Shown here: piece by piece, positions 24,059-56,290 of the stretch
How positions within the stretch are numbered: the first letter of the stretch is position 1
How the letters are laid out: each line of letters starts with the position of its first letter
From: an uncultured Acidobacteriota bacterium
GTDB lineage: Bacteria > Acidobacteriota > Thermoanaerobaculia > Thermoanaerobaculales > Thermoanaerobaculaceae
DNA: 64,000 nt
Assembly (NCBI GenBank): GCA_963789745.1
Contig: CAWBLW010000010.1
Span: 69,984-133,983 of the forward strand
Direction of reading: 5' to 3'
Position numbers and translations under genes: made by a program
Notes under the pieces: generated by a model
The model's database searches: none
Told to the model about the DNA's origin: nothing
What the model saw: only the letters and a program-made list of their open reading frames with translations

Positions 24059-24094
24059 CCCTCCGATCCGCTACACTTGGGGCAGGGAGCCAAC

Positions 24095-24997
24095 ATGAGT
24101 CAGAATACGTCGCGCATTTTTCGGCCGGTGCCGGTCGTCGGGCCGGCGCGTATCTGGTTTGCGGCGCTGTCGGCCGCGGTCGCCGTGGCTGTCGTCGGGT
24201 TGCTCTTCTCGTTGTTGCGCACCCCGACAATCCGCTACGAGATCGACAGCCGGGCACTGACGATCACCAGCGTGCTGGGGTCAGAGCACCAGCAAAAGAC
24301 GATCGATCTCGCGCGCATCGCCGAGGCAAAGATCGAGTGGTTGCACGACGGCGCGCTGCGTTTCGGGACCGAGAAGCCCGGCTACTGCGTCGGCTTCTTC
24401 GCCTATCCGCGGCTCGGCGAGGTATGGCAGATCACCGACTGCTCCCAGCACGGCGTCGTGGTGACCTCGAGCGCCGAGGCCACGCCCGTCGCGGTGACGC
24501 CGTCGGACCCGGACGCCTTCTTGAAGGCGTTGCGAGAGGGCCGGCGAGCGGTGTTTACGCCCCCCGGGCGCCGGGGCGCGGCGTGGTGGGTCAACCTGTT
24601 CGTCGTGGCGGGCGTCGGCGCCCTCGCGATCGCCGCGCTCGCGGTCGTCCTCTTCGTCGCCCCGGCGCGCCTGCGCTATACCGTGGCCGGCGGCGCGCTC
24701 GAGGTGCGCATGCTGCTGCGGCGTCGGGTCGTGCCGCTCGCCGGCGTGCGGGCGCGGGCGCACCGGCCGCTGGCCGGCCACCGCCTGGCAGGACTTCCGC
24801 TGCCTGGTTACCGGGTCGGCTCGTGGGTGCTCGACACCATGGCCACGTCGGTGCTCGCCTCCGCGGCCGACGAAGGCGTGATGATCGAGGGCGACGGGCG
24901 GTTGTTCGTGAACCCGCAGGACCGGGAGGGGTTCCTGGCGGCGCTGGCAGCCGAGGGCGCCACGGTCATCACCGACACCACGTTGCACCGCCGCTAG
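24095..24997 (+). CDS. membrane protein with duplicated bacterial PH-like (bPH/YdbT-like) modules, function unknown
   Basis: ATG at 24095 is preceded by GGGAG. There are two TM segments (IWFAALSAAVAVAVVGLLF; WWVNLFVVAGVGALAIAALAVVLFV), each followed by a roughly 100-aa soluble module. Confidence 0.55.
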   Translation: MSQNTSRIFRPVPVVGPARIWFAALSAAVAVAVVGLLFSLLRTPTIRYEIDSRALTITSVLGSEHQQKTIDLARIAEAKIEWLHDGALRFGTEKPGYCVGFFAYPRLGEVWQITDCSQHGVVVTSSAEATPVAVTPSDPDAFLKALREGRRAVFTPPGRRGAAWWVNLFVVAGVGALAIAALAVVLFVAPARLRYTVAGGALEVRMLLRRRVVPLAGVRARAHRPLAGHRLAGLPLPGYRVGSWVLDTMATSVLASAADEGVMIEGDGRLFVNPQDREGFLAALAAEGATVITDTTLHRR

Positions 24998-25252
24998 GGG
25001 CGCCGCCGGCGTCGGACCTCTCGCTGCGTTGCGCCGCGCCGGTTCGCATCCTCACATAGCCTACGGCTATGCTCCGGTGCGACCGGCTTGCGCGCCTTGC
25101 GATAGGCCCAACGGCGGCGGCGCGGCTACACGCCGCAAGTGGCGAGGCCCTGCCTTTGGGGGAACGTGCGTCTTCGAGGTTGGCGCTCGGGGCTGCGCGG
25201 CCTGCGGCCGGCGCAGCCGGCTCGGACCACGGACCACGGACCACAGACCACG
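24998..25252. repeat. composite structured intergenic repeat, copy 1 (long hairpin module, second hairpin, GGACCAC heptamer array)
   Basis: It starts directly after the TAG at 24995-24997. Its ends are near-identical to the copies at 50230 and 54513 (GGCGCCGCCGGCGTCGGACCTCT ... ATAGGCCCAACGGCGGCGGCGCGGCTACACGCC). The apical hairpin is CATAGCC-tac-GGCTATG (25055-25071). The heptamer array lies at 25224-25252. Confidence 0.85.
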
Positions 25253-25383
25253 CATCTTCCGTACCCGGGCCAGCCTCGCGTCGGGGGGGCCGGCCTGACG
25301 GCGACCCGGAGGCCGAACTGTGGCACACTCGGGCGTGAGCGCCGTCGGTCGCGGGAGTGCGGATCTCGGATGGAGGTGAGGCC

Positions 25384-25962
25384 ATGCAGCGGCTGTTCTT
25401 GAGGACGGTTTTGGCGTTCGGGTCGTTGGTGGTGACGTCTGCGGCTTGGAGCCCGGCATCGGCGCAGGGCCCCACGGATCGCGCTGCGGAAGCCGGAGTC
25501 GTCAAGGTCGGCGAGCGGGCCCCCGACTTCTCGCTTCCTGCGGCGGACGGAAAGACCTATCGTCTCGCCGACCTGCGAGGCGGCAAACGTCTCGTGCTCG
25601 TGATCTTCCGCGGGGTGTGGTGAGTCTACTGCCGAATGCAGCTCGGCGAGCTGCAAGAGCACCTGTCGGAGTTCCGCGGCCTCGGTGCCGAGGTGTGGGC
25701 GATCAGCTCGACCGACCCCGTGGACAAGTTGACCACCTACGCGCAGGTCCGGGGTATCAAGTTCCCCTTGCTCGCGGACTCCGGCCTCGCGGTCACGAAG
25801 AGATACGGCGTACTCAACGAGGCGCGTCGCAACATGGCGTACCCGGCGACGCTGGTGATCGATCGCAAAGGAGTCGTCCGCTACGTCCGAATCGACGTCG
25901 ACTTCACGAAGCGGCCGCCTGTGACCGACCTGCTCGCATTTCTGAAGAAACTGGCGAAGTGA
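25384..25962 (+). CDS. secreted AhpC/TSA-family redoxin (peroxiredoxin/thiol-disulfide oxidoreductase-like), probable selenoprotein with UGA-encoded Sec at 25621-25623
   Basis: RBS GGAGGTGAG precedes ATG at 25384, and a signal peptide follows (MQRLFLRTVLAFGSLVVTSAAWSPASAQ). ORFs 25357..25623 and 25636..25962 share one frame. The TGA falls at the first Cys of the family's W-C-x-x-C motif: LVLVIFRGVW-[TGA]-VYCRMQLGELQ. A SECIS-like hairpin lies just downstream. Confidence 0.7.
25637..25655 (+). promoter_or_regulatory. candidate bacterial SECIS hairpin
   Basis: TGCAGCTC-GGC-GAGCTGCA is a perfect 8-bp stem with a G-rich apical loop. It starts 13 nt after the in-frame TGA, within the usual UGA-to-loop spacing for bacterial SECIS elements. 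Confidence 0.5.
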
Positions 25963-35926: not shown

Positions 35927-37150
35927 CTACGAGCCGAGGGGCGGCGTCTTCAGGCGCTGCGCCAGCTCCTCGGGGATGAGCGAGTACACCGCTGTGGCCG
36001 TGACCAGGTCCGCGACCTCGACCCACTCGTCGGTGGTGTGGGCGAGCTCCTCACGGCCCGGCGCGAAACCAACCGTCGGAATCCCGAGCCGCCCCATCGT
36101 CGCCACGCCGTTGGTGGAAAATACCCAGCGCGAGATCCCCGGCGCGCGCCCGAGCACGGCCCGCGCGGAGGCCGCCACCCCCTGCACGAGCGGGTGCGCC
36201 TCGGGGACGACCCAGGTGGGGAAGATCTGCTCCTGGCGGGCGGGCTCGCCGGTCCACGCCTGGCCCTCCCAGGAGAGGACGCGCACCTCGGCGTCGCCGA
36301 GGTGCGGCAGCGCGCGGATCTCCTCCAGCGCGCTCTCGGGCGACTCGCCGGCGGTGAGGCGGCGGTCGAGCACGATCCGCGCTTCGTCCGGCACAGCGTT
36401 GAGCGACGCGGTCTTGCAGTCGATGAACGACACAGTGACGGTGCCCTTGCCGAGGAAGTCGTCGGCACGCAGCGTCGCGTTGAGCGCCTCGATGTCGGCG
36501 ACGATCGGCGCCATCTTGTACACCGCGTTGACCCCGCGCTCGCAGTGGGCGCCGTGGGCGGAGACCCCCTTGGTCACGACCTCGACCGACATCCGCCCGC
36601 GGTGGCCGCGGTAGACGTCGAGGTTGGTGGGCTCGCCGAGGATGACGGCGTCCGGCCGTACGCCCTCCGCCTCGATGAGGTGCATAAGGGGATAACCGTC
36701 ACACGACTCCTCCATGACCGACGCCACGAGGACGAGCTGCACGCCGGGGGGCAGGCCGCGCTCCAGCATCAGCTTGGCGCCGTACGCCATGCACGCGACC
36801 GCGGGAAGCTCGTCCACCGCGCCGCGCCCGTGCACCTTGCCGCCCTCGAGCTTCCCGGCAAACGGGTCGTACCGCCACGCCTGCGGGTCGCCGATGCCGA
36901 CGCAGTCGATGTGGCCGTCCATCATGATCACGAGCGGCCCGTCGCCGACGCGGGCGACGACGCTGCCGATGCGGTCGAAGTGGACGTCGGCGAACCCCAA
37001 CGCCTCGTACTCGGCCTTGACGCGCTCGCAGCGCTCGCGCTCGCGGCCGCTCTCTGCCGGGATCGCGATCATCTCGCGCAGGAAGCGCACGATCTGGGTC
37101 TCGTACCGTTTCGCCGCCGCCAACGCTTCTGCACCCCGTAGCGTCGTCAT
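35927..37150 (-). CDS. ygeY: YgeY-family M20 metallohydrolase ('selenium metabolism-linked' hydrolase)
   Basis: 407 aa: IVRFLREMIAIPAESGRE..., MMDGHIDCVG, GRGAVDE, VMEESCDG, GEPTNL...GHRG. This is the M20/ArgE/DapE fold in the YgeY pattern. Its ATG overlaps the upstream gene's stop (ATGA). Confidence 0.8.
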   Translation of the reverse strand: MTTLRGAEALAAAKRYETQIVRFLREMIAIPAESGRERERCERVKAEYEALGFADVHFDRIGSVVARVGDGPLVIMMDGHIDCVGIGDPQAWRYDPFAGKLEGGKVHGRGAVDELPAVACMAYGAKLMLERGLPPGVQLVLVASVMEESCDGYPLMHLIEAEGVRPDAVILGEPTNLDVYRGHRGRMSVEVVTKGVSAHGAHCERGVNAVYKMAPIVADIEALNATLRADDFLGKGTVTVSFIDCKTASLNAVPDEARIVLDRRLTAGESPESALEEIRALPHLGDAEVRVLSWEGQAWTGEPARQEQIFPTWVVPEAHPLVQGVAASARAVLGRAPGISRWVFSTNGVATMGRLGIPTVGFAPGREELAHTTDEWVEVADLVTATAVYSLIPEELAQRLKTPPLGS

Positions 37151-38631
37151 GACCGTGCCTCTTCCCGGACCCCGAGCCCCGAGTCCCGAACCCCGGTGTC
37201 TCTATTGAACGCCTCGATCGCCTCGTCCCACGCCGGCAGCTCGGCCTGCAGGTCGGTCCAGAACGTCGGCGACCACAGCGCGTTGAGCTCCGACACGGTT
37301 TTGCCCTGCTGCTCGACCCAGGTGAAGTACTTGAGGTTGTGGATCGCCTTGCGGTCGGGGTAGGTGAGCTCCTTGACGTGGTCCGTGGTGGCGCCGAGCA
37401 GGTAGCGCTCGAAGTCGATCTCGGCCTGGCGCTCGGTGTACGTCCCCCGCTCGGCCGTCAGCTCGGCGAGACGCGTCTGGTACAGCGCCGCGGAGTCGGT
37501 GAAGCAGGTCACGAGCACGTCGTCGGCGTCCAGCTCGTAATGACGAGCGGTCTTGATCGCCGCCAGCAGGTTGCAGATCGAGGAGATGCCGAGCAGCGGC
37601 AGTTGGTTGACGAGGTCGTAGGCGACGCCGCGGCCGAGCAGCGCCTCTCGCCCCGCCGGCTCGTTGAACACCCGCAGCAGCCGCATCGTCGCCTCGTCGT
37701 CGATCGCCGCGACGAAGTCGGTCGTGCGGACGTTGTGGATCCACGGCACGTGCTTGTCGCCGATCCCCTCGATGCGGTGGCCGCCGAACCCGGACGCCAG
37801 CAGCGTCGGGCATTGCAGCGCCTCGGCCACCGTTGTCGTGCACCCCGGGAACGTGCGCTTGAGGAAGTCGCCGGCGCCCAGCGTGCCGGCGGAGCCGGAG
37901 GCGCCCACCCACGCGGCCAGCCGACCGCGCGGGCCGGCGACGGCGGCGAACGCCTCCTCGGCTGCGGGGCCGGTGACGCCGAAGTGCCAGAGGTAGTTGC
38001 CGAACTCGTCGAACTGGTTGAAGATCACCGCCTGCGGCTGGGTCTTCCGGATCTCCCAGCAGGCGTCGAAGATCTCCTTCACGTTGGACTCGCAACCCGG
38101 CGTCGCGATCACCTCGGCGCCGATCGAGGCGAGCCACTCGAAGCGCTCGCGGCTCATCTCCTCGGGGAGGATCGCCACCGCGTGGCAACCCAGGAGCGCC
38201 GAGTCGAACGCGCCGCCGCGGCAGTAGTTGCCGGTCGAGGGCCACACCGCCTTTTGCGTCACCGGGTCGAACCCTCCCGCGACCAGGCGGGGCACGAGGC
38301 ATCCGAACGCCGCGCCGACCTTGTGCGCGCCGGTCGGGAAGTGGCGCCCGACGAGGCCGACGATGCGGGCCGGCACCCCGGACAGTTCGGGGGGGATCAC
38401 GAGGGCGTTCACCGGGCCGAAGCCGCCGGTCGCCGGGTCGTTGTGCCACGTGATGCGGAAGAGGTTGAGGGGGTCAACGGCCTGCATGTCGATCCCCGGC
38501 AGCCGTTCGGCGATGGCGGCGTCGATCGTTTTCGGGTCGCGCTGCTGGGCGATGGTCGGGATCACGATGCCGCGCTCCCGGCAGCGCTCCACCGCGTGTG
38601 CGCGCGCGCGTCGTTTCGTTTCGTCGGTCAC
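37147..38631 (-). CDS. fold-type-II PLP-dependent enzyme (tryptophan-synthase-beta/cysteine-synthase superfamily)
   Basis: GTG at 38631. 494 aa. The PLP-lysine region is FPTGAHKVGAAFG and the glycine loop is GASGSAGTLG. The last ~17 aa (DTGVRDSGLGVREEARS) are encoded by a CTCGGGG-type heptamer array (37167-37201). Confidence 0.7.
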   Translation of the reverse strand: MTDETKRRARAHAVERCRERGIVIPTIAQQRDPKTIDAAIAERLPGIDMQAVDPLNLFRITWHNDPATGGFGPVNALVIPPELSGVPARIVGLVGRHFPTGAHKVGAAFGCLVPRLVAGGFDPVTQKAVWPSTGNYCRGGAFDSALLGCHAVAILPEEMSRERFEWLASIGAEVIATPGCESNVKEIFDACWEIRKTQPQAVIFNQFDEFGNYLWHFGVTGPAAEEAFAAVAGPRGRLAAWVGASGSAGTLGAGDFLKRTFPGCTTTVAEALQCPTLLASGFGGHRIEGIGDKHVPWIHNVRTTDFVAAIDDEATMRLLRVFNEPAGREALLGRGVAYDLVNQLPLLGISSICNLLAAIKTARHYELDADDVLVTCFTDSAALYQTRLAELTAERGTYTERQAEIDFERYLLGATTDHVKELTYPDRKAIHNLKYFTWVEQQGKTVSELNALWSPTFWTDLQAELPAWDEAIEAFNRDTGVRDSGLGVREEARS

Positions 38632-38724
38632 GTCTGTCGCTCCCGGAGCGCATTGTATCGGTTTTGCCGCGTTCGGGCACGACGAGTCTCAAACTAAACA
38701 CAGGCATTCCGGGACCGCTCCCGG

Positions 38725-41325
38725 GTGCGGACCCCTGTGCTAGGCTCGTTCCTCTTGGGGGGTCCATTGACGCTGAGAAGCCCCTTCACCCTGACCGACG
38801 CCCGGCTCACAGCCGAGGTCGCGAGGTGCGAGTACTGCGAGGAAAAGCCGTGCCAGGCCGCCTGCCCCGCCGACTGCTCCCCGGCTGACTTCATCATGGC
38901 GGTGCGCGTCGGCGCGCCGTCCGATTTCCGTCGCGCCGCCGGGATGATCATGGCGGCGAACCCGCTCGGCGGCGTGTGCGGCGCCGTGTGCCCCGAGACC
39001 CACTGCATGGCGGCGTGCGCCCGGGCGACGTTCGACACGCCAATCGAGATCCCCGCGGTCCAGGCGACGATCATCGCGAAGGCGCGGGAGTTGGGCGTGA
39101 TGCCGGCGTTCGCGTTCGCGACGCCCGGCGGACGGCGCGTGGCGGTCGTCGGCGGCGGGCCGGCGGGCGCGGGCGCCGCGGCGGTGCTCGCGCAGGCCGG
39201 CTGCCGGGTGGAGGTCTTCGAGGCGCGCGCTGCGGGCGGGATGGCCGGGCTGATCCCGTCGTTCCGGCTCGAAGCCGAGGTGCTCGCCGCCGACCTCGCG
39301 TTCGTAACCGCGCTCGGCGACGTGCGCGTGCACGAGAGGGAGGTGGCCGATCCGGCGGTGCTGCTCGGCGAGGGCTACGACGCGGTCGTGGTCGCGACGG
39401 GGCTGTCGCAGCCGCTCCGCCTCGGCATCCCAGGCGAGGAGTTGGCCCAGCCGTGGACCTCGTTCCTGGCCGACCGCACGGGTCGCAGCGCGGCCGGACG
39501 GCGGGTGGCGGTGATCGGCGGGGGCGCTGTCGCGGCCGACTGCGCCGAGACGGCGGCTGCTGCGGGCGCCGAGCATGTCGAACTGTTCGCCCTCGAGAAG
39601 CTCTCGGAGATGCCGCTGACGGCGAAGGAGCGCGCGGGGCTGATGCGGGCGGGTGTCCAGGTCTCGGGCCGCACGCGCGTGGCGGCGGTCCTCGCCGACG
39701 GCGGCGCCGTGCGCGGCGTGCTGACGCGCAAGGTTGCCCTCCCCGCGGGGCAGGCGTTCCACCCGCGCCGGGTGGAGGACGTCATCGGCAGCGAGCAGAC
39801 GCGCGGCGACATCGACACCGTGGTCGTCGCGATCGGGGCGCGGGCGGCTGCGCCGCGCGAGGCTCGGCCGGGTCTTGTGTTCGCCGGCGACGCGGTCAAC
39901 GGCCCGACCACCGTGGTCGAAGCGGTCGCGGCGGGCAAGAACGCCGCCCTCGAGGTGCTCGCCGGTCTCGGGGTTCGGGTTTCGGGGTTCGGGGCTGGGA
40001 ACCAAACCGCCGCCGAACAGACGACGCGAGCCCGGACGAGCCCCGAGTCCCGAGCCCCGAGTCCCGCGCGGGTCAAGAGCTTCGCGATCCTGCCCGGCTT
40101 CCGGCGCCTTCCGGTGCCGCTCGACGCCGACTTCTTCGGCCGGCCGATCGCCTCGCCGTTCCTGCTCTCGGCGGCGCCGCCGACCGACGGCTACGAGCAG
40201 ATGCGCAAGGCGTACGCGGCCGGTTGGGCGGGCGGCGTGATGAAGACGGCGTTCGACGGCGTCCCGATCCACATCCCGTCGCGCTACATGTTCGCGTTCG
40301 ACAAGACGACGTTCGCCAACTGCGACAACGTCTCCGGCCATGCGCTCGAGCGCGTCTGCCGCGAGGTCGAACGGCTGCGCCGCGAGTTTCCCGACCGGCT
40401 GACGCTCGCCTCGACCGGAGGTCCGGTCACCGGCCACGACGAGTTCGACCGCCGCGGCTGGCAGGCGAACACGGCGAAGCTCGAGGCGGCCGGGGCCTGC
40501 GGCATCGAGTACTCGCTCTCCTGCCCGCAGGGGGGCGACGGCACCAAGGGCGACATCGTCTCGCAGGATGCCGCGCTGACCGCGAAGATCGTCGGCTGGG
40601 TGCTGGAGACCGGCGACCCCGGCGTCCCCAAGCTCTTCAAGCTCACCGGCGCGGTGACGGCGATCGCCCCGATCGTGACGGCGATCCGGGAGGTGCTGGA
40701 CCGCCATCCCGCCGCCAAGGCCGGGGTGACGCTCGCGAACACCTTCCCGACCCTCGCGTTCCGGCCCGGGCGTCGCGAGCGCTGGGACGAGGGGATCGTC
40801 GTCGGGATGAGCGGCGCGGGGGTGACCCCGATCTCCAACCTCACCCTGGCCAAGGTTGCGGACCTCGGGGTGGTGGTCTCCGGGAACGGCGGCCCGATGG
40901 ACTACATGGCGGCCGCCAACTTCCTCGCCCTCGGCGCCCGCACGGTGCAGTTCTGCTCCGCGGTGATGAAGTACGGCTACGGGGTGGTCGGCGAGCTGCA
41001 CTCCGGCCTCTCGCACCTGCTCGAGGCCCGCGGCCTCGCCTCGGTCGCCGAGCTGATCGGGCGCGCGCTGCCCGGTCCGGTGACCGACTTCATGGAACTG
41101 CCCGCGGTCAAGCAGATCTCGCACGCCGAGCCTTCGCTTTGCGTGCACTGCGGCAACTGCACGCGCTGCCCGTACCTGGCGATCGCGCTGGACGCCGAGG
41201 GGGTGCCGCACACCGACCCCGAGCGCTGCGTCGGCTGCTCGTTCTGCACCCTGATGTGCTTCACCGGCGCGCTCGCGATGCGCGACCGCACGCCCACCGA
41301 GGCGGCGGCGCTGCGCGAGGCGTGA
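38725..41325 (+). CDS. dihydropyrimidine-dehydrogenase-like fusion: GltD/PreT-like FAD/NAD(P) oxidoreductase, PreA/DHOD-like FMN TIM barrel and 2x[4Fe-4S] ferredoxin
   Basis: The N-terminal Fe-S region is CEYCEEKPCQAACP...VCGAVCPETHCMAAC, followed by VAVVGGGPAGAGAA and VAVIGGGAVAADCA (two Rossmann folds). After a repeat-encoded linker comes a DHOD-like barrel (FGRPIASPFLLSAAPP...GIEYSLSCPQ...VSGNGGP). The C-terminus is CVHCGNCTRCP...CVGCSFCTLMC. The start is uncertain: GTG 38725, TTG 38755 or TTG 38767. Confidence 0.8.
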   Translation: MRTPVLGSFLLGGPLTLRSPFTLTDARLTAEVARCEYCEEKPCQAACPADCSPADFIMAVRVGAPSDFRRAAGMIMAANPLGGVCGAVCPETHCMAACARATFDTPIEIPAVQATIIAKARELGVMPAFAFATPGGRRVAVVGGGPAGAGAAAVLAQAGCRVEVFEARAAGGMAGLIPSFRLEAEVLAADLAFVTALGDVRVHEREVADPAVLLGEGYDAVVVATGLSQPLRLGIPGEELAQPWTSFLADRTGRSAAGRRVAVIGGGAVAADCAETAAAAGAEHVELFALEKLSEMPLTAKERAGLMRAGVQVSGRTRVAAVLADGGAVRGVLTRKVALPAGQAFHPRRVEDVIGSEQTRGDIDTVVVAIGARAAAPREARPGLVFAGDAVNGPTTVVEAVAAGKNAALEVLAGLGVRVSGFGAGNQTAAEQTTRARTSPESRAPSPARVKSFAILPGFRRLPVPLDADFFGRPIASPFLLSAAPPTDGYEQMRKAYAAGWAGGVMKTAFDGVPIHIPSRYMFAFDKTTFANCDNVSGHALERVCREVERLRREFPDRLTLASTGGPVTGHDEFDRRGWQANTAKLEAAGACGIEYSLSCPQGGDGTKGDIVSQDAALTAKIVGWVLETGDPGVPKLFKLTGAVTAIAPIVTAIREVLDRHPAAKAGVTLANTFPTLAFRPGRRERWDEGIVVGMSGAGVTPISNLTLAKVADLGVVVSGNGGPMDYMAAANFLALGARTVQFCSAVMKYGYGVVGELHSGLSHLLEARGLASVAELIGRALPGPVTDFMELPAVKQISHAEPSLCVHCGNCTRCPYLAIALDAEGVPHTDPERCVGCSFCTLMCFTGALAMRDRTPTEAAALREA
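39967..40065. repeat. inverted heptamer-array element lying in-frame inside the DPD-like gene
   Basis: The left arm is CTCGGGG TTCGGGT TTCGGGG TTCGGGG (39967-39994). The right arm is GAGCCCC GAGTCCC GAGCCCC GAGTCCC (40038-40065). They are separated by 43 nt, and the arms are approximate reverse complements. Confidence 0.8.
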
Positions 41326-41354: not shown

Positions 41355-42686
41355 GTGAACAGCCTGCTGATCTCGAACGGCACGGTCGTCACGCTCGGGG
41401 CGGCCGGCCGCGTCCTGCACCGCCACGACGTGCTCTGCGAGGGGGGGCGGATCGCGCGGATCGCGCCTCACGGCACCGTCGCGGGCGGCACGGCGAGGGT
41501 CATCGACGCCGCCGGCAAGCTCGTGATGCCGGGGTTCATCAACGCGCACACGCACTTCTACTCGGCGTTCGCGCGCGGCCTCGGCAAGGCGGCGCCGTCG
41601 ACGTCGTTCCGCGAGGTGCTGGAGCACCTGTGGTGGCGGCTCGACCGCGCCCTCGACCTCGAGGACTGCCGCCTCTCGGCGCTGGTCACGGCGATCGACG
41701 CCGTGCGTCACGGGACAACGACGCTGATCGATCACCACGCAAGCCCGCACGCGGTGCGCGGCTCGCTCGACGCGCTCGCCGCGGCGGTCACCGAGGTGGG
41801 CGTGCGCGCCTGTCTGTGCTACGAGATCTCCGACCGCGACGGCGAGGCGATCGCCCGCGAGGGGATCGCGGAGAACGCGGCGTTCGCGGCGCGTTGCCGG
41901 CGGGAGAGCGACCCGCACCTCGCCGCGATGTTCGGCCTGCACGCGGCGTTCACCCTCTCGGACGCGACGGTCGAGCGCGCCGCGGCGGCCGCGCGCGAGC
42001 ACGGCGCCGGCTTCCACGTCCACGTGGCCGAGGCGGCCTCCGACGAGGAGCACTCGATGCGCGAGCACGGCGAGCGGGTGGTGGAGCGGCTGCACCGCCT
42101 CGGCGTCCTCGGCCCCGCCACGATCGCCGCCCACTGCGTCCACATCGACGGCCACGAGGCGGCGCTGCTCGCCGAGACCGGCACCGCGGTCGTCCACAAC
42201 CCGCAGTCCAACATGAACAACGCGGTCGGCGTCGCGGCCGTGCCGGCGATGCTGGCCGCCGGCCTGCTCGTCGGCCTCGGCACGGACGCCATGACCACCG
42301 ACATGCTCGAGGAGTTGCGCGCCGCACTGTTCGTGCGCCACCTCGCCGCCGGCGACCCGTCGTGCGGCTTCATGGAGACGGTCTCGCTGCTGGTGTCGGG
42401 CAACGCCCGGATCGCGGAACGGTTCTGGCCGGAGGAAGGCCTCGGCGAGCTGGCCGAGGGGCGCGCGGCGGACGTCGTGCTCGTGGACTACGACCCGCCG
42501 ACGCCGCTCGACGAGGGCACCCTGTTCGGTCATCTCGTGTTCGGCGTGTCGCAGGCGGCCGTGGACACGACCGTTGTTGGCGGCCGCGTGTTGATGGCAG
42601 GGAAGAAACTGGAGCTGGATCTCGACGAGGCCGGACTCATGGCGGCGGCGCGCGAGCGCGCGGCGGCGTTGTGGGAGAGGTTTTGA
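41355..42686 (+). CDS. ssnA: SsnA-type aminohydrolase (amidohydrolase superfamily, chlorohydrolase/deaminase-like)
   Basis: RBS GGAGGAGG precedes GTG at 41355. The product begins VNSLLISNGTVVTLGAAGRVLHRHDVLCEGGRIARI, then PGFINAHTHFYSAFARG (HxH), HVHVAE, AHCVH and GLGTDA. Confidence 0.8.
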   Translation: MNSLLISNGTVVTLGAAGRVLHRHDVLCEGGRIARIAPHGTVAGGTARVIDAAGKLVMPGFINAHTHFYSAFARGLGKAAPSTSFREVLEHLWWRLDRALDLEDCRLSALVTAIDAVRHGTTTLIDHHASPHAVRGSLDALAAAVTEVGVRACLCYEISDRDGEAIAREGIAENAAFAARCRRESDPHLAAMFGLHAAFTLSDATVERAAAAAREHGAGFHVHVAEAASDEEHSMREHGERVVERLHRLGVLGPATIAAHCVHIDGHEAALLAETGTAVVHNPQSNMNNAVGVAAVPAMLAAGLLVGLGTDAMTTDMLEELRAALFVRHLAAGDPSCGFMETVSLLVSGNARIAERFWPEEGLGELAEGRAADVVLVDYDPPTPLDEGTLFGHLVFGVSQAAVDTTVVGGRVLMAGKKLELDLDEAGLMAAARERAAALWERF

Positions 42687-44062
42687 AGGGCGGGGCTCGG
42701 GGCTCGGGGCTTGGGGCCCGGGGACGGTCAGGCGTTCTGATCCGGGGGGGGACGGTGTGGACGCCGGAGGGGGCGCGGCGCGCCGACCTCCGCGTGGTCG
42801 GCGAGGCGATCGCAGAGATCGGCGATCTCTCGCCGCTCCCGGGGGAGACCGTTGTCGAGGCGGCGGGGCTGCACGTGCTGCCGGGGATGATCGACGTGCA
42901 CGTGCACGTCGACGACGTGATCGGCCCGTACACGCTCGCCGACACCTTTCCGACCGCGTCCGCTTTGGCGCTCGCGACCGGCGTCACCACGCTCGGCGGT
43001 TTCGTCACCCAGCATCCCGGCGAGACGCTGACCGGGGCCGTCGAGCGCTGCCGGGCGCGCGCGCGTGGCCGTAGCCATTGCGAGGTTCACTTCCACCTGA
43101 CGCCGACGACGTGGCCGTGGGACGAAGTCGGGCGCCTCGTGGCCGCCGGTTGCACCACGTTCAAGCTCTACACGACGTACCGCGAGGCCGGGCTGTTCAC
43201 CGACTACGAGCGGCTGGCCGTGGTGATGGAGCGCCTCGCCCCGCTCGGCGCGCGGCTGCTCGTGCACTGCGAGGACGACGACGTCCTGCACGCGGTGGAC
43301 GCGTCCACGCTCGATCCGGGCGACGCGCACGAGTACGCGCGGCTGCGCCCCGAGGCCGCCGAGGTCGCCGCGGTCGAGCGCGTCATCGACCTCGCCGCGC
43401 GCACCGGCTGTCCGGTACACATCGTCCACGTCTCCACCGCGGACGCCGTCGCAAGGATCGCGGCCGCGCGCTCGCGCGCCGCGATCACCTGCGAAACCGC
43501 GCCCCACTACCTGTTGCTCACCGATGCGGCCCTTTCGGGACGCAACGGCCACCGCTTGCTGTGCACGCCGCCGCTGCGCCCCGCGGCGACGCGCGCCCGG
43601 CTCGAGGCGGCCGCCGCCGCAGGCGCGTTCGACCTGTTCGCAACCGACCACTGCGCGTTCACCAAAGCCGACAAGGATGCGCGGCGTGACGATTTTCGCG
43701 CGGTCCCGAGCGGCGTCGCCGGGGTCGGCGCGCTCGTGCCGATGCTCTTCGAGCTGCTGGTGACGCGGCAGCGCCTCGGGCTCGGGGAGCTGGCAACGCG
43801 TCTCGCCGCCAACCCGGCGAAGCTCCTCGGGATCTACCCGCGCAAGGGAGCGATCGCGGTGGGCTCCGATGCGGACCTCGCCGTGGTCGATCCCGCCGGC
43901 CCGCAGCGGCCGGTGGTCTCGACGCTCGCCGACGCGTACGAGACCTACCCCGGCCGCACGACGACCTGGGACGTTCGCCGCGTGCTGCTGCGCGGTGAGA
44001 CGGTGATCGTGGACGGCGCGCTCGCCGAACCCGGCCACCCGACCGGCCATCTTCTGGCGTGA
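42683..44062 (+). CDS. dihydropyrimidinase/D-hydantoinase-family cyclic amidohydrolase
   Basis: The conserved domain starts at VLIRGGTVWTPEG (42734). It has GMIDVHVHV, TFKLYTTY (the carboxylated-Lys region), LVHCED, VHIVHVS and ATDHCAF. The start is uncertain. TTG at 42683 overlaps the ssnA stop and would add LKGGARGSGLGARGRSG, encoded by a heptamer array (42689-42723). CTG at 42737 is an alternative. Confidence 0.8.
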   Translation: MKGGARGSGLGARGRSGVLIRGGTVWTPEGARRADLRVVGEAIAEIGDLSPLPGETVVEAAGLHVLPGMIDVHVHVDDVIGPYTLADTFPTASALALATGVTTLGGFVTQHPGETLTGAVERCRARARGRSHCEVHFHLTPTTWPWDEVGRLVAAGCTTFKLYTTYREAGLFTDYERLAVVMERLAPLGARLLVHCEDDDVLHAVDASTLDPGDAHEYARLRPEAAEVAAVERVIDLAARTGCPVHIVHVSTADAVARIAAARSRAAITCETAPHYLLLTDAALSGRNGHRLLCTPPLRPAATRARLEAAAAAGAFDLFATDHCAFTKADKDARRDDFRAVPSGVAGVGALVPMLFELLVTRQRLGLGELATRLAANPAKLLGIYPRKGAIAVGSDADLAVVDPAGPQRPVVSTLADAYETYPGRTTTWDVRRVLLRGETVIVDGALAEPGHPTGHLLA

Positions 44063-44756: not shown

Positions 44757-44839
44757 GTAGGGGCGGGGCTTGCCCCCGCCCGCCGCCGCCCCCTCAACGC
44801 CCCCGCTCGCCCGCGGGCGGCCGCAAGGGCCGCCCCTAC
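44757..44839. repeat. nested GC hairpin element (GTAGGGGCGG...CCGCCCCTAC)
   Basis: The outer arms are GTAGGGGCGG and CCGCCCCTAC. They enclose the hairpins GGGCGGGG-cttg-CCCCCGCCC and GGGCGGCC-gcaag-GGCCGCCC. Confidence 0.75.
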
Positions 44840-44856
44840 GCAAGAACCCATCGACT

Positions 44857-44887
44857 GCGCGCCCGGCGGTCGCGCCCCACAATAGAG
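44857..44887. repeat. roughly 30-nt motif GCGCGCCCGGCGGTCGCGCCCCACA(A)TAGAG, copy 1
   Basis: It recurs in direct orientation at 45065-45094. It also recurs in inverted orientation at 54691-54716 (ATGTGGGGCGCGACCGCCGGGCGCGC), inside repeat copy 3. Confidence 0.85.
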
Positions 44888-44970: not shown

Positions 44971-45094
44971 CTGTAGCGGCCGATGCTCGCATCGGCCGAC
45001 GAGCCGAGACGGCGCCGCACAAGGCCGGCGTTTGCAAGCAAACGCAGCTACAGAAGCAACAGAAGCGCGCCCGGCGGTCGCGCCCCACATAGAG
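44971..45094. repeat. multi-hairpin cassette, copy A
   Basis: The sequence is TGTAGCGGCCGATGCTCGCATCGGCCGA...GGCGTTTGCAAGCAAACGC.GCTAC.GAAGCAAC. A 28-nt identical block and about 80% overall similarity link it to 56171-56290. It contains the perfect hairpins GGCCGATGC-tcg-CATCGGCC and GCGTTTGC-aa-GCAAACGC. Confidence 0.85.
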
Positions 45095-45107
45095 ACAAGA
45101 ACGTCGG

Positions 45108-49077: not shown

Positions 49078-49186
49078 CGTCGCCAGAGGTTCGTAATCTT
49101 CGTCGTTAAATAGCAGCTTCCTTTGTGATCCCGGACACCGCGAGGAGATGCCCATCGTGTTAGAAACAAAACTGATAGGAGCAACA

Positions 49187-50230
49187 ATGCCGGACGTCGG
49201 AAGGCGACCTCACGGTGTCCGCGTCGCCGGAGCGATTCTGCTGAGTGCGGGTACCCTGCTCGGTGTGGCGCCGACACACGCCGCAGACGATGGGCTCGGC
49301 GCCCGAGCGCGGGTGCGGCGCCACCTGCAGCGCTCCTCCGCCGCTGTGGCCGGCCCAACGCTCGCGGGGTGCCGGATCTTCCCGGCGGACAACGTATGGA
49401 ACGCCCGGGTCGACCTCCTGCCCGTGGACCCGCGCTCCGCCGACTACATCGCCACGATCGGGCCGGGCACCGCCCTCCACCCCGACTTCGGCTCCGGCAC
49501 CTGGGACGGCGGGCCGATCGGCATCCCGTTCGCGGTGGTGCCTGGAAGCCAGGCGCCCGTGCCGGTGAGCTTCGAGTACGCCGACGAGAGCGACCCGGGC
49601 CCCTACCCGGTGCCGGCGGACGCGCCGATCGAGGGCGGACCCGCGAGCGCCGGCGACCGCCACGTGCTGCTCGTGGACAGCGGCCGCTGCCTCCTCTACG
49701 AGCTCTACGCCGCCTACCCGCAGCCGGACGGGAGCTGGCGCGCTGGCTCGGGCGCCGTTTTCGACCTGCGCGGCAACGCGCTGCGCCCGGCGACCTGGAC
49801 CTCGGCGGACGCCGCCGGCCTGCCGATCCTGCCGGGCCTGGTGCGCTACGACGAGGTGGCCGCGGGTGCGATCCGCCACGCGCTGCGCTTCACCGTCGCC
49901 CACACCCGCAACGAGTTCATCTGGCCGGCGCGCCACCGGGCCTCGAGCAGCAGCAACCCCGCGTACCCGCCGATGGGGCAGCGGTTCCGCCTCAAGGCGG
50001 GTTTCGACGTCTCGCGCTTCCCGAGAAGCGTGCAGGTGATCCTTGTGGCGCTCAAGTTCTACGGCATGTTCGTGGCGGACAACGGCTCGAACTGGTACAT
50101 CTCGGGCGCGCCCGACGAGCGCTGGAACAACGACGAGTTGCACCTGTTGAGCCAGGTCCACGGCAGCGACTTCGAAGCGGTGGAGGAATCGGGGCTCATG
50201 GTGAGCCCCGATTCGGCCCAGGTGCGCTAG
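49187..50230 (+). CDS. conserved secreted hypothetical protein
   Basis: ATG at 49187 follows TAGGAG and gives a signal peptide (MPDVGRRPHGVRVAGAILLSAGTLLGVAPTHAA). Conserved-looking blocks are RIFPADNVWNARVD, GDRHVLLVDSGRCLLYELY, WTSADAAGLPILPGLVRYDEV, IRHALRFT and FVADNGSNWYISG. I recognise no family name. Confidence 0.6.
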   Translation: MPDVGRRPHGVRVAGAILLSAGTLLGVAPTHAADDGLGARARVRRHLQRSSAAVAGPTLAGCRIFPADNVWNARVDLLPVDPRSADYIATIGPGTALHPDFGSGTWDGGPIGIPFAVVPGSQAPVPVSFEYADESDPGPYPVPADAPIEGGPASAGDRHVLLVDSGRCLLYELYAAYPQPDGSWRAGSGAVFDLRGNALRPATWTSADAAGLPILPGLVRYDEVAAGAIRHALRFTVAHTRNEFIWPARHRASSSSNPAYPPMGQRFRLKAGFDVSRFPRSVQVILVALKFYGMFVADNGSNWYISGAPDERWNNDELHLLSQVHGSDFEAVEESGLMVSPDSAQVR

Positions 50231-50548
50231 GCGCCGCCGGCGTCGGACCTCTGGCTGCGTTGCGCTCGCCGGTTCGCATCCTCACGTACCCTCCGGGTAC
50301 GCTCCGGTGCGACCGGCTCGCGCGCCTTGCCATAGGCCCAACGGCGGCGGCGCGGCTACACGCCCCAAGTTGCAACGGCCTGCCTTCGGTGGAGTGTTCG
50401 TCTTCGAGGGAGGCGCTCGGGGCTGCGCGGCCTGCGGCCGGCGCGGCCGGCTCGCGCGACGGACCAGGGGCCAGTTGTCCTTGCGCCTTGACCCTGCGTT
50501 TTCAGTCTTCGCGGACCCCGAGCCCCGAACCCCGAGCCCCGGTTTCTC
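50230..50548. repeat. composite structured intergenic repeat, copy 2 (ends in a CCCCGAG heptamer array)
   Basis: It starts on the last base of the TAG at 50228-50230. The apical hairpin is CGTACCC-tcc-GGGTACG. The heptamer array at 50513-50547 overlaps the 3' end of the minus-strand yaiI-like gene. Confidence 0.85.
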
Positions 50549-51002
50549 CATCGGTGCGGCGGCGGATGGCGTTGATCGATTCGTCGAGGCGTTGCAGGAA
50601 GGACGAACGGTCGCGCTTCGTGAACGGCGGCGGGCCGCCGGTCATCTCGCCCAGGTCGCGCAGCTCCGCCAGCAGGCCGCGCGTGGCGAGGGCGTCGCCG
50701 ATGTTGGCGGCGGTGAACGGCGGGCCCGCGTAGCCGATGACCGTCGCGCCGCGGGCGAGGCAGCGCGCGGCGAGGGGGATGTCCGCCGTGACCACGATGT
50801 CGCCGGCTCCGACGTGCTCGGCGATCCAGTCGTCGGCGACGTCGATCCCTTCCCCGACGACCTCGAGCCGGATGCGCGGGTTCTCGGGCTTGCGCATCCA
50901 CGACCCGGCGACCAGCGTGACGTCGAGGCCGTAGCGCTCCGCCACCCGGTAGACCTCACCCTTCACCGGGCAGGCGTCGGCGTCGACGTAGATGTGGAGC
51001 AC
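50502..51002 (-). CDS. yaiI: YaiI/YqxD-family protein (UPF0178/DUF188)
   Basis: 166 aa: MLHIYVDADACPVKGEVYRVAERYGLDVTLVA...IVVTADIPLAARCL. The C-terminal ETGARGSGLGVRED is encoded by the heptamer array. Confidence 0.85.
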   Translation of the reverse strand: MLHIYVDADACPVKGEVYRVAERYGLDVTLVAGSWMRKPENPRIRLEVVGEGIDVADDWIAEHVGAGDIVVTADIPLAARCLARGATVIGYAGPPFTAANIGDALATRGLLAELRDLGEMTGGPPPFTKRDRSSFLQRLDESINAIRRRTDGETGARGSGLGVRED

Positions 51003-51048
51003 GCGGTCCCCTTCCGCAGGCGATCATACTGCGGCGCCGACGAGGCGG

Positions 51049-53778
<2,730 letters not shown>

Positions 53779-53891
53779 CGCGCCCGTCCCCCCGTTTGCA
53801 TACTACCCGCTCGGTCGCCGCTGAATTCCTCTGCCGCGCCGCGCCCGCACGCGTTCCGGAGCCTGCGGTGGCATGCTATCGTTTGACCACC

Positions 53892-54512
53892 ATGGCATTG
53901 CACGTCGTCGACCACCCCGTCCTGCAGGACATCCTGACCCGCTTGCGCGACCGGACGACCCACTGCGAGGAGTTCCGCATCCTCGCGCACCGCATCTCCC
54001 TGCTGCTGGTTGCCGAGGCGACCCGCGACATCCCGACGGTGGCCGGCACGGTCGACACCCCACTCGAGACCACCGCGGCGCAGCGGGTCGCGGCCCGCGT
54101 CGTCGCGGTGCCGGTGCTGCGCGCCGGGCTCGGGATGCTGCAGGCGTTCCTCGACCTCGTGCCCTCGGCCGAGGTCGGGTACTTCGGCCTCGAGCGCGAC
54201 GAGACGACCGCCGTGGCCCGTCGCTACTACGAGAAGGTCCCCGCCGACCTCGGCAGCGCGGTGGTGTTCCTGCTCGACCCGATGCTCGCCACCGGCGGCT
54301 CCGCCGCGATGGCGGTCGAGGGCCTCGAGGGGATGGGCGCGCGCAAGGTACGCCTCGTTTCGATCGTCGCCGCGCCGGAAGGGGTGGAGCGCTTGCAGCG
54401 CGCGGCGCCCGGCGTCGAGATCTACACCGCGGCCGTCGACCGGCAGCTCGACGGCCGCAAGTACATCCTCCCGGGTCTCGGCGACTTCGGCGACCGCCTC
54501 TACGGCACCTGA
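53892..54512 (+). CDS. upp: uracil phosphoribosyltransferase
   Basis: ATG at 53892 gives MALHVVDHPVLQDILTRLRD..., then VAVPVLRAGLGM, the PRPP loop VVFLLDPMLATGGSA, and YILPGLGDFGDRLYGT. Confidence 0.9.
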   Translation: MALHVVDHPVLQDILTRLRDRTTHCEEFRILAHRISLLLVAEATRDIPTVAGTVDTPLETTAAQRVAARVVAVPVLRAGLGMLQAFLDLVPSAEVGYFGLERDETTAVARRYYEKVPADLGSAVVFLLDPMLATGGSAAMAVEGLEGMGARKVRLVSIVAAPEGVERLQRAAPGVEIYTAAVDRQLDGRKYILPGLGDFGDRLYGT

Positions 54513-54840
54513 GGGCGCCGCCGGCGTCGGACCTCTCGCTGCGTTGCGCTCGCCCCGCTCGCGTCCTCATGTAGCCTCCGGCTACACTCCGGCGCGGCGG
54601 GGTTCGCGCGCCTTGCGATAGGCCCAACGGCGGCGGCGCGGCTACACGCCCCAAGCTGCTGCGCCCTGCCTGTCGGCGTCGTTCATCCTAATGTGGGGCG
54701 CGACCGCCGGGCGCGCTTCTTTGTCTTCGAGGGAGACGCTCGAGGCCGCGCGGCCTGCGGCCGGCGCAGCCGGCTCCGACCACGGACCACTGACCACGGA
54801 CCACGTCTTTTCGGTGCCCGGACCCCGGTCTTTTCCGGCC
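54513..54840. repeat. composite structured intergenic repeat, copy 3 (carries a nested 26-nt motif and a GGACCAC array)
   Basis: It starts directly after the upp TGA. The apical hairpin is TGTAGCC-tcc-GGCTACA. The subapical stem is CCCCGCtCGCG/CGCGGCGGGG. The insert ATGTGGGGCGCGACCGCCGGGCGCGC lies at 54691-54716, and the heptamer array at 54777-54804 continues in degenerate units. Confidence 0.85.
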
Positions 54841-54865
54841 ACCGGCCGCGGGCCACGCCTCTGCT

Positions 54866-56170: not shown

Positions 56171-56290
56171 ATGTAGCGGCCGATGCTCGCATCGGCCGAG
56201 GGGTCGAGGGGTACCCGGAGAAGCCCGGCGTTTGCAAGCAAACGCCGCTACGGAAGCAACGGCCGCGCGTCCGGCGGCCGCGCCGCGCAC
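56171..56290. repeat. multi-hairpin cassette, copy B
   Basis: It has the same architecture as 44971-45094. It sits in the divergent pfk/cydA promoter region. Confidence 0.85.

Follow-up and report, generated by a model that had tools for sequence, protein, structure and literature searches.

What sort of element begins at the stop codons of three genes in a single stretch of bacterial DNA? The question was raised by a sequence-only reading of a 64,000-nt window (the whole stretch analysed, to which all coordinates refer unless a locus is named) from an uncultured bacterium of the Acidobacteriota family Thermoanaerobaculaceae (GenBank assembly GCA_963789745.1, contig CAWBLW010000010.1, positions 69,984–133,983). 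Three near-identical structured elements had been described there (copies 1, 2 and 3), and all three were found on the plus strand where that reading had placed them. A covariance model of the family matched exactly these three in the window, with scores of 145.1, 143.4 and 132.3 bits, respectively. 'Near-identical' proved too strong, as pairwise identity is only 80–90%. The stop codons also lie as described, and the conserved sequence GCGCCGCC starts 2, 0 and 2 nt after those of copies 1, 2 and 3. The first ~125 nt of each copy, here called module A, forms one long imperfect hairpin with complementary ends GCGCCGCCGGCGTCGGACC...GGCCCAACGGCGGCGGCGC, as had been proposed. Both the apical stems (CATAGCC/GGCTATG, CGTACCC/GGGTACG and TGTAGCC/GGCTACA) and the subapical stems with a bulged T, together with their compensatory differences, had been quoted correctly. 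The best explanation that the sequences offer is a GC-rich intergenic hairpin repeat family specific to the Thermoanaerobaculaceae lineage, with module A as its lead unit.

Structure and position of the module A family

A 20-mer from the 3' arm (AGGCCCAACGGCGGCGGCGC) matched 105 stretches in contigs representing one genome per species. Ninety-eight were in ~15 metagenome-assembled genomes (MAGs) of Thermoanaerobaculaceae/Acidobacteriota and the other seven were chance matches in other phyla. When a covariance model built from 62 distinct copies was applied to the related loci fetched (L-numbers below), ~105 copies were found, 11 of them lacking the 20-mer, and several of the latter belong to another subfamily, A', whose arms are GCCGCCGATAGCGGACCGTCTGC and GCATCYGGCCCACTCTCGGCGGC. 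The family therefore comprises at least 100 copies in ~15 Thermoanaerobaculaceae MAGs, a set ascertained by one exact 20-mer and the model derived from it, in MAG contigs with home-made gene calls. Between ~5 and 20 copies were seen per MAG. The best-sampled MAG, MFD01872.bin.2.203, had 19 exact-match loci, and one of its contigs (L090) is orthologous to window positions 43.6–50.4 kb at 86–88% identity. No match to Rfam 15 was found at the gathering score in the window, or on a copy of A carrying the insert X described below, and a permissive search (E ≤ 10) around copy 1 gave only chance-level matches (E 4.9 and 6.7). The exact 20-mer had no match in IMG/VR, and a blastn search with the 255-nt copy 1 found none in PLSDB plasmids or GenBank phages, and hence no link to known mobile replicons was found. 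To the extent of these searches, which gave no Rfam match and no paper tying this lineage to such repeats, no structured repeat family had been described before in the phylum Acidobacteriota.

The consensus structure of the 62 distinct copies, determined with RNAalifold, was one long hairpin of 42 pairs, 15 of which showed compensatory double changes. Paired cells made up 98.2% of this structure compared with 89.1% in shuffled alignments. Double-change cells numbered 207 compared with 58, a value reached in none of 500 shuffles, although these counts ignore phylogeny and many of the changes divide subfamilies rather than single copies. The covariation score was 0.236 compared with 0.080 when shuffled (0/500), and slid registers gave at most 0.043. 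At columns 59/75, CG was found in 33 copies and UA in 29, and at columns 43/91 CG in 41 and GC in 21, with no broken pair in either case. Columns 25/107 were CG in 42 copies and GC in 18, and three or four pair types were seen at several pairs of the hairpin. The covariation that had been noticed in three copies is thus far above chance with ~100 further copies, and the earlier conclusion that selection acts on secondary structure rather than coding is upheld.

Conservation of sequence is distributed unevenly along the hairpin. The outer 25-bp stem is nearly invariant, including four fixed mismatches (G.G, C.A, A.C and C.U), so primary sequence also matters there. Invariance of the 3' arm is partly built in because that arm supplied the search word, and it is the 5' arm that constitutes independent evidence. 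Between A and A', the adjoining outer-stem pairs change in a compensatory manner while the CGGACC/GGCCCA core and its two mismatches are kept. The inner stems vary freely with pairing retained, and the apical internal loop (UCA/CUCC) and UCC loop are nearly invariant. This pattern suggests that the outer stem and loops may be read by a protein and that the interior may be needed merely as a helix. The predicted stability of hairpin A is ~−80 to −89 kcal/mol. The fold of copy 1 as a whole was calculated at −143.8 kcal/mol (z = −2.7).

Using a crude gene caller based on third-position GC content, the upstream neighbour was on the same strand as module A in 93 instances and on the opposite strand in seven. 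In a stricter test, which required an open reading frame (ORF) of at least 80 codons ending just upstream, 87 copies qualified. The base of the stem was ≤3 nt from the stop codon in 54 of these and ≤15 nt in 79 (91%), with a median of ~2 nt, and the remaining copies were at 16–29 nt (one) or 30–37 nt (seven). The 0–3 nt between stop codon and stem base are variable and include no fixed target sequence. As a control, a stem of at least 7 bp beginning ≤3 nt after the stop was found in only 41 of 382 other genes of the same loci, by a hairpin-offset scan of 90-nt downstream segments that is valid for genes without A only, A being longer than the segment. The 87 copies adjoin 55 unrelated host gene families, and therefore represent at least 55 independent sites. 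The hosts are ordinary core genes, including glnA, ftsH, hemH, cox3, upp, response regulators and genes for a class II aminoacyl-tRNA synthetase, an SDR and an aldehyde dehydrogenase, amongst others.

Copies in opposite orientation were found from a few hundred nucleotides to a few kilobases apart, each behind its own gene (L040, L012, L043, L047 and L091), and both L040 and L012 have a pair of copies facing one another in a convergent spacer. Orientation thus goes with the gene and not with the replichore, and replication-strand bias was ruled out as its cause. All three window copies had been assigned to convergent intergenic spacers. This holds for copies 2 and 3, which face a DUF188 gene and a PFK gene, respectively, but not for copy 1, where the next ORF is a co-directional, redoxin-like one starting at 25384. 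In the family, the next gene downstream was convergent for 56 of 96 copies and co-directional for 40, at times only 13–80 nt away, and hence convergent spacers are not the only setting of the element. The stop codon of a convergent gene was never found next to the 3' end of A (minimum 53 nt). The possibility that the element itself supplies the stop codon was rejected for upp, as the Upp terminus ...GDRLYGT is identical whether the element is present or absent. Inside ortholog groups the stop shifts between TAG, TAA and TGA, and orthologous copies carry any of the three.

Retention, turnover and nested inserts

Many A sites are orthologous between species, and in orthologous pairs the element is mostly no less identical than the 300-nt flank upstream of it. 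Non-functional spacer DNA is expected to be less conserved than coding DNA. Copy 2 and its ortholog in L090 share an identity of 0.99 (one difference in 127 nt) with 0.87 in the flank. The corresponding values were 0.97 and 0.81 for L024/L085, and 0.95 and 0.80 for L012/L020. Copy 1 has an ortholog in L047, where the flanking gene is merely 71% identical. The site behind upp was occupied, 2–4 nt after the stop, in all nine orthologous loci fetched (proteins 82–95% identical to the window Upp), and the type of element there differs by genome, being canonical A, A' or A with insert X. No A-family element was found next to Upp orthologs that were ≤77% identical, but there the flanks were too diverged to align and provide no clean empty site. 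No empty/filled A site was detected among genome pairs at 86–97% identity.

Identical paralogs were present within one genome. Judged from these alignments, the sites are old and stable and the sequence at a site turns over, which may occur by compensatory change in situ or by gene conversion from other copies. Leftover partial 5' arms were found upstream of full copies in L071, L088, L026 and L190. In L071 the partial arm is TAGGCGCC-n5-TAGGCGCCGCC, and in L190 a 17-nt arm fragment remains. These remnants point to repeated replacement at the DNA level at the same spot.

Alignment of the copies revealed a common order of module A, module B (GGCTACACGCC...GCCCTGCC), module C, hairpin D and heptamer arrays. 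Across the family, the units downstream of A (B, C, D, E and heptamer arrays of several kinds) come in changing combinations, forming a mosaic like those of bacterial interspersed mosaic elements (BIMEs). B is next to A in most copies and is also found as tandem units without A, and an alternative module, CGCTGCCGCGGGCAGAAAC, can stand after A. Copy 3 contains an extra ~37-nt insert that is absent from copies 1 and 2 and has module E as its core. The second hairpin and heptamer arrays that the sequence-only reading placed after the first module are both present, but the CCCCGAG array at 50516–50541 lies inside the final codons of the DUF188 gene rather than at the end of copy 2, and it probably does not belong to the A composite.

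In ~18 copies, a ~97-nt insert, X (ATCTATCCGGGCGGGGGG...GGAGCCGCG), was found between GGACC and TCTCGC of the 5' arm, where it forms a side branch of two hairpins. Four orthologous A sites of sister genomes are polymorphic for X (filled in L010, L028 and L053, compared with empty in L013, L095 and L046/L069), and the body of A is otherwise unchanged in three of the four pairs. No target-site duplication (TSD) was detected at X insertions. X was also seen in L009, L015, L034, L038, L059, L070, L076, L077, L097, L105 and L189, and at other positions in L040 and L099. L017 and L079 contain a different insert, Y. As X is polymorphic, site-specific and lacks a TSD, it is a site-specific mobile or excisable unit, and its polymorphism indicates that the repeat system is dynamic at the DNA level.

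Competing explanations

The window was examined for genes and signatures of mobile elements. Pfam scans of ~40 window ORFs found housekeeping genes only, with no transposase, as had been stated earlier, and no integrase. A tblastn search using IS200, RAYT (repetitive extragenic palindrome-associated tyrosine transposase) and IS608 queries gave no match, which is weak evidence as only ~1 Mb of loci was covered. No transposase flanked by A arms was found in the ~1 Mb of loci, and no RAYT flanked by A repeats in these or the window. The arms GCGCCGCCGGCGTCGGACC and GGCCCAACGGCGGCGGCGC are terminal inverted repeats (TIRs), as in miniature transposable elements with inverted repeats (MITEs). However, no TSD was found at A, where the left flank is a stop codon and 0–3 variable nt and the right flank is module B or another module. 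No insertion sequence (IS) with A-like ends was seen, and the combined TIR and TSD signature of a known IS or MITE was not found. None of the outcomes named in the sequence-only reading as refuting its claim (lack of supported covariation, a known IS or MITE, an Rfam match) was obtained. A TA/CTAG target with TA duplication in the style of IS630 found no support, as the spacer on the left varies, the sequence on the right is GGCTAC or GGCTGC and no flank is duplicated. Nor does A carry the GTAG/CGTC tag of repetitive extragenic palindromes (REPs): the nucleotides before the stem are variable, and the CGTC in GGCGTCGG lies in the stem and not in an unpaired tag.

In one instance (L195:2177–2614), a gene for a 145-aa Y1 transposase was found in the upp–PFK spacer, 227 nt downstream of an A' element, and in L196 the left flank, of which 150 nt were available, is identical to that of L195. 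The gene scores 157 bits with the IS200/IS605 model (NF033573) and 40.6 bits with the RAYT model, for which the cut-off is 80. It has its own subterminal hairpins, unlike A, has no A arms at its flanks, and does not occur in the sister loci L190–L194. HUH transposases therefore exist in the lineage and land in this mosaic, but the gene is not evidence for moving A.

Among the explanations that the sequence-only reading offered, a REP/BIME-like repeat and a structured RNA derived from a 3' untranslated region (UTR) are each compatible with the data and are probably two aspects of a single phenomenon, while a terminator or insulator between convergent genes is disfavoured. We regard as evenly poised the proposal that module A is a hairpin repeat of mobile origin, similar to REP, BIME or ERIC (enterobacterial repetitive intergenic consensus) elements, that has been kept as a 3'-UTR structure and acts as an exonuclease barrier coupled to the terminating ribosome. 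As the 3' UTR, the element would be part of the upstream gene's transcript, and its very stable terminal structure would block 3'-to-5' exonucleases and set the end of the mRNA. Because the stem would begin within the footprint of a ribosome on the stop codon, we propose that each terminating ribosome would have to melt its base, coupling termination to the fate of the mRNA. Copies would have arisen and been made alike by DNA-level processes, namely copying in trans and/or gene conversion between sites, which would account for the subfamilies, the leftover 5' arms and the nested inserts.

Several observations weigh against this proposal. About 7% of copies break the polarity rule; one of them (L197:1062–1189, minus strand) is flanked by a pair of co-directional genes to which it is antisense, its 5' end lying 12 nt before the start codon of upp. 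With no more than a few tens of genes bearing it in each genome, the element is not a general 3'-end device. The fixed C.A and A.C mismatches of the plus strand are U.G and G.U on the minus strand, and the antisense hairpin is predicted to be the more stable in 61 of 62 copies, by 8.7 kcal/mol on average. A U.G pair is conserved on the plus strand in 58 of the 62 copies. Counts of G.U and A.C intermediates are about equal in A (~19 vs ~19), so the mRNA strand is not favoured, and those in hairpin D are 4 and 6, respectively. One pair of hairpin D was seen as T-A, C-G and G-C, the switch from T-A to C-G occurring via both T.G and C.A. Such counts, near-equal in A and D, were uninformative as to the strand of function. 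A conserved outer stem with fixed mismatches would also be expected of a DNA hairpin recognised by a protein. Finally, TAG is enriched among the abutted stops (TAG/TGA/TAA 29/20/6 per site compared with a background of 143/276/34, chi-square p ~9e-4), being the host stop in 59% of copies (about 55% of sites), and this could mean an insertion preference and not a function.

Several of these observations fit a purely selfish element. Module A would then be a non-autonomous element of the REPIN (a pair of inverted REPs) or IS200/IS605-PATE type, a single-stranded DNA hairpin recognised by a trans-acting HUH (Y1) or other transposase. Pairing would be kept for the enzyme, and the position at stop codons would reflect a TAG-like target preference and the purging of harmful insertions rather than a benefit to the host. 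The sequence-conserved outer stem with its fixed mismatches around an interior that is only paired is what this predicts, and the ends of REP/RAYT elements and IS608 resemble it. The multi-copy family with subfamilies and identical paralogs, the partial 5' arms in the four loci named above, the nested, site-specific insert X that lacks a TSD and differs between sister genomes, the even wobble counts, the TAG enrichment and the IS200/IS605 TnpA in the upp–PFK spacer of L195 also count in its favour. We nevertheless hold it to be doubtful, though possible. No A-arm-flanked transposase was found in the ~1 Mb sampled, and the L195 TnpA scores as IS200 and not RAYT and has different hairpins of its own. 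Presence/absence polymorphism of A was not seen between the close genomes compared, and sites are kept across genomes with flanks only 71–80% identical. The 0–3 nt spacer holds no fixed target sequence, and we know of no DNA transposition mechanism that reads gene orientation and all three stop codons. Gene-linked polarity and long retention are thus left unexplained. A factor-independent or bidirectional terminator/insulator at gene ends, in a GC-rich host lacking canonical U-tract terminators, is quite unlikely. It agrees with the stability of the hairpin (~−80 to −89 kcal/mol), with its location at gene ends, more than half of them (56/96) with a convergent gene downstream, and with the better fold of the antisense strand, as needed against incoming convergent transcription. 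Against this, no U-tract follows the hairpin on either strand, and a scan for intrinsic terminators found no terminator-like site in 24800–25700 or 50100–55000, A being followed by GGCUACACGCC. The co-directional genes behind 40 of 96 copies, some within 13–80 nt, suggest operon-internal positions, the facing copies in L040 and L012 would be needless for a symmetric terminator, and only a small share of genes carry A.

The unpaired apical nucleotides (UCCUCA ... UCC ... CUCCGG) hardly vary from one subfamily to another, in contrast to the covarying stems next to them, and this, with the more stable minus-strand fold, would suit a small RNA acting in trans or as a cis-antisense transcript. Either a 3'-UTR fragment would pair through its pyrimidine-rich loops (UCC apical; UCA/CUCC internal) with Shine–Dalgarno regions, or a minus-strand RNA with GGA/GGAG loops would titrate a CsrA-like protein or ribosomes. 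This entirely speculative reading is very unlikely: the scan found no promoter-like site within or close to the element, Rfam gave no relative, and a trans-acting RNA has no reason to abut stop codons in one orientation. Scarcely credible is the reading of A as a folded, attC-like site for recombination in a gene-cassette system, despite an imperfect hairpin lying directly after an ORF and co-oriented with it, conserved outer boxes around a variable but paired centre, and paired heptamers (GTCGGAC/GCCCAAC) that resemble GTTRRRY/RYYYAAC. The neighbours are often convergent, so that there are no cassette arrays, and no integrase is present in the window. It was rejected because the order of the boxes is reversed (GTCGGAC 5' and GCCCAAC 3', where attC has RYYYAAC 5' and GTTRRRY 3') and because the hosts are core genes at conserved syntenic positions. 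A more radical version of a stop-codon function, which we consider unlikely, is that A is a dedicated cis-acting sensor or brake on translation termination, or a mobile element homing to the 3' boundaries of ORFs by a mechanism new for bacterial transposons. As a sensor or brake, its inner helix would be free to vary while the outer helix and loops would be read by a protein, and a connection with release factor 1 (RF1) is hinted at by the excess of UAG and UAA stops. If true, either would be a new category and not another REP-like repeat.

Window layout and relation to known repeats

The features of the three copies are collected in Table 1. An exact-protein look-up of the 360-aa gene upstream of copy 2 gave no record. 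The heptamer arrays of copy 3 stop ~10 nt short of the stop codon of the convergent PFK gene.

Table 1. Positions of the three copies, their modules and the abutted stop codons in the window
Feature	Coordinates	Strand	Evidence
TAG stop of bPH_5-domain gene (24077–24997), abutted by copy 1	24995–24997	+	
Copy 1 module A, 124-nt imperfect hairpin GCGCCGCCGGCGTCGGACC...GGCCCAACGGCGGCGGCGC	25000–25123	+	Covariance model match, fold, alignment
Copy 1 module B, GGCTACACGCC-N-GCCCTGCC	25124–25154	+	
Copy 1 module C, GTCTTCGAGG..GCGCTCGGG	25170–25191	+	
Copy 1 module D, second hairpin GCTGCGCGGCC-tgc-GGCCGGCGCAGC	25192–25217	+	
Copy 1 heptamer array, CGGACCA x4.3	25223–25252	+	
TAG stop of 360-aa gene (49148–50230), abutted by copy 2	50228–50230	+	
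Copy 2 module A hairpin	50231–50353	+	Covariance model match; ortholog in L090
Copy 2 module B	50354–50384	+	
Copy 2 modules C (50400–50422) and D hairpin (50422–50447; U.G wobble on plus strand)	50400–50447	+	
CCCCGAG x3.7 array in last codons of minus-strand DUF188 gene (50502–51002)	50516–50541	.	
TGA stop of upp (uracil phosphoribosyltransferase), native stop position, abutted by copy 3	54510–54512	+	
Copy 3 module A hairpin	54515–54639	+	Covariance model match
Copy 3 module B	54640–54670	+	
Module E (TGTGGGGCGCGACCGCCGGGCGCGC), repeated core of the extra insert of copy 3	54692–54716	+	
Copy 3 modules C (54723–54745) and D hairpin (54745–54770; C.A mismatch on plus strand)	54723–54770	+	
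Copy 3 heptamer arrays, GACCACG x4 (54778–54805) and CCGGCCA x3.1 (54835–54856)	54778–54856	+	

Module E is a further small hairpin repeat that was found, in addition to copy 3, at ~44830–44860 (minus strand), 45070–45095 and 56270–56290, as well as in L086, L014, L021, L052 and L068. Its reverse complement ends a pair of repeats (44972–45089 and 56172–56289, 83% identical) that contain the hairpins GCGGCCGATGCTCGCATCGGCCG and GGCGTTTGCAAGCAAACGC. Further G- or C-rich heptamer arrays are at 39968–39994 with 40037–40066, at 37170–37195 and at 50516–50541. Among them, an inverted pair of G-rich and C-rich arrays is inside the long ORF 38698–41322. The two CCCCGAG arrays are 87% identical over 46 nt and encode similar C-terminal tails (..SGLGVRE..) of unrelated minus-strand genes, PALP (37147–38688) and DUF188 (50502–51002).

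Structure-forming repeats in sense orientation were also found at other gene 3' ends of the window. In one instance, (GGGGCUC)x5 at 42691–42723, which has G-quadruplex potential, begins 5 nt past the TGA (42684–42686) that ends an amidohydrolase gene. In several loci, reverse-complement heptamer arrays were found 3–10 nt after the stops of convergent genes. These repeats would fit a host-level use of stable 3'-end structures. In L114 (3119–3200) and L117 (3119–3300), where the Upp orthologs are 70–73% identical, another GC-rich hairpin repeat (GAGCWGGGGGGCGCTGCGTCGCGCCCCCC...) is located 1–2 nt after the upp stop, and hairpin repeats against stop codons may thus reach beyond family A.

Three further features were also recorded. 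The redoxin-like ORF after copy 1 (25384–25962, plus strand; AhpC/TSA type, with a signal peptide) contains an in-frame TGA (25621–25623) in the context GVW-[TGA]-VYC (UxxC), with a GCAGCUC-GGC-GAGCUGC hairpin ~15 nt downstream. Judging by sequence features, it looks like a selenoprotein gene with a bacterial selenocysteine insertion sequence (SECIS) element and not two ORFs or a pseudogene. A 198-nt direct repeat (53302–53499 and 53530–53727, 72% identical) inside a minus-strand P-type ATPase gene is an ordinary coding duplication, of N-terminal metal-binding domains (YHS/HMBD). A ~1.3-kb insertion with a long reverse-strand ORF, probably an IS, was found in the CAVVEO ortholog (L090:5560–6840, corresponding to window position ~44780). 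It lies inside a hairpin, GGGCGGGGGCAAGCCCCGCCCC, with a possible GCAAGC duplication at its flanks, and the window provides the empty site.

By analogy with described repeats, the anatomy of A appears closest to ERIC elements and to REP/BIME mosaics. ERIC elements, also known as intergenic repeat units (IRUs), are 127 bp long compared with 125 nt for A, likewise form a single long imperfect hairpin and are found in tens of copies per genome in transcribed intergenic DNA. Larger ERIC variants have internal insertions at fixed sites, as A has X. There is, however, no sequence similarity, and ERIC belongs to another phylum. ERIC termini are TA-flanked, with a TSD, and both orientations occur, whereas A lacks a TSD, is ~93% co-oriented with the upstream gene and is mostly ≤3 nt from its stop, at sites that are kept across species. 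According to a passage in PMC2229807, citing De Gregorio 2005, Yersinia ERIC hairpins next to the end of the upstream gene change the stability of the upstream mRNA in an orientation- and ribosome-dependent manner. In passages of the same source, Correia/NEMIS, RUP and other MITEs are small, non-coding, hairpin-forming elements that are co-transcribed with their neighbours and can affect mRNA processing. MITEs have TIRs, TSDs and a cognate IS, whereas for A neither a TSD nor a cognate IS was seen. The inner stems of A evolve in a compensatory manner, a change that plain TIR elements do not need.

REPs and BIMEs share with A the character of GC-rich extragenic palindromes at gene 3' ends, in mosaics with other motifs. 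A passage in PMC12306157, citing Liang, Rudd and Deutscher, describes Escherichia coli REPs within 15 nt of a stop codon as stalling the terminating ribosome and lowering expression. Ninety-one per cent of A copies (79/87) lie within the distance that defines such stop-proximal REPs (<16 nt). E. coli REPs differ from A in being 20–40 nt long, present in hundreds to thousands of copies in alternating orientations, linked to RAYTs, and within 15 nt of a stop in only 11–52% of cases. REPs bear a GTAG or CGTC tag (PMC3733652), whereas A is 125 nt long with nested helices and no fixed tag, and a RAYT was not found in the window or the ~1 Mb of loci. With REPIN–RAYT systems, as excerpts from published accounts portray them, A shares two inverted arms that make one hairpin with pairing kept, subfamily populations in each genome and long vertical persistence. 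REPINs are not tied to stops or gene orientation, and the Y1 gene seen near A is an ordinary IS200.

For its phylum, the A family is a well-defined structured repeat family. Because several copies lie at contig ends, it is apparent that A repeats break MAG contigs, and they can mislead gene calls at 3' ends. With its orthologous retention, turnover of subfamilies and compensatory changes, the family is well suited to studying how repeats of mobile origin become fixed parts of genes. The positional rule, with the stem base 0–3 nt after the native stop codon on the same strand, is much stricter than that of REP or ERIC, and the family therefore offers a clean natural test of whether hairpins in the footprint of the terminating ribosome regulate termination and the fate of the mRNA outside E. 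coli.

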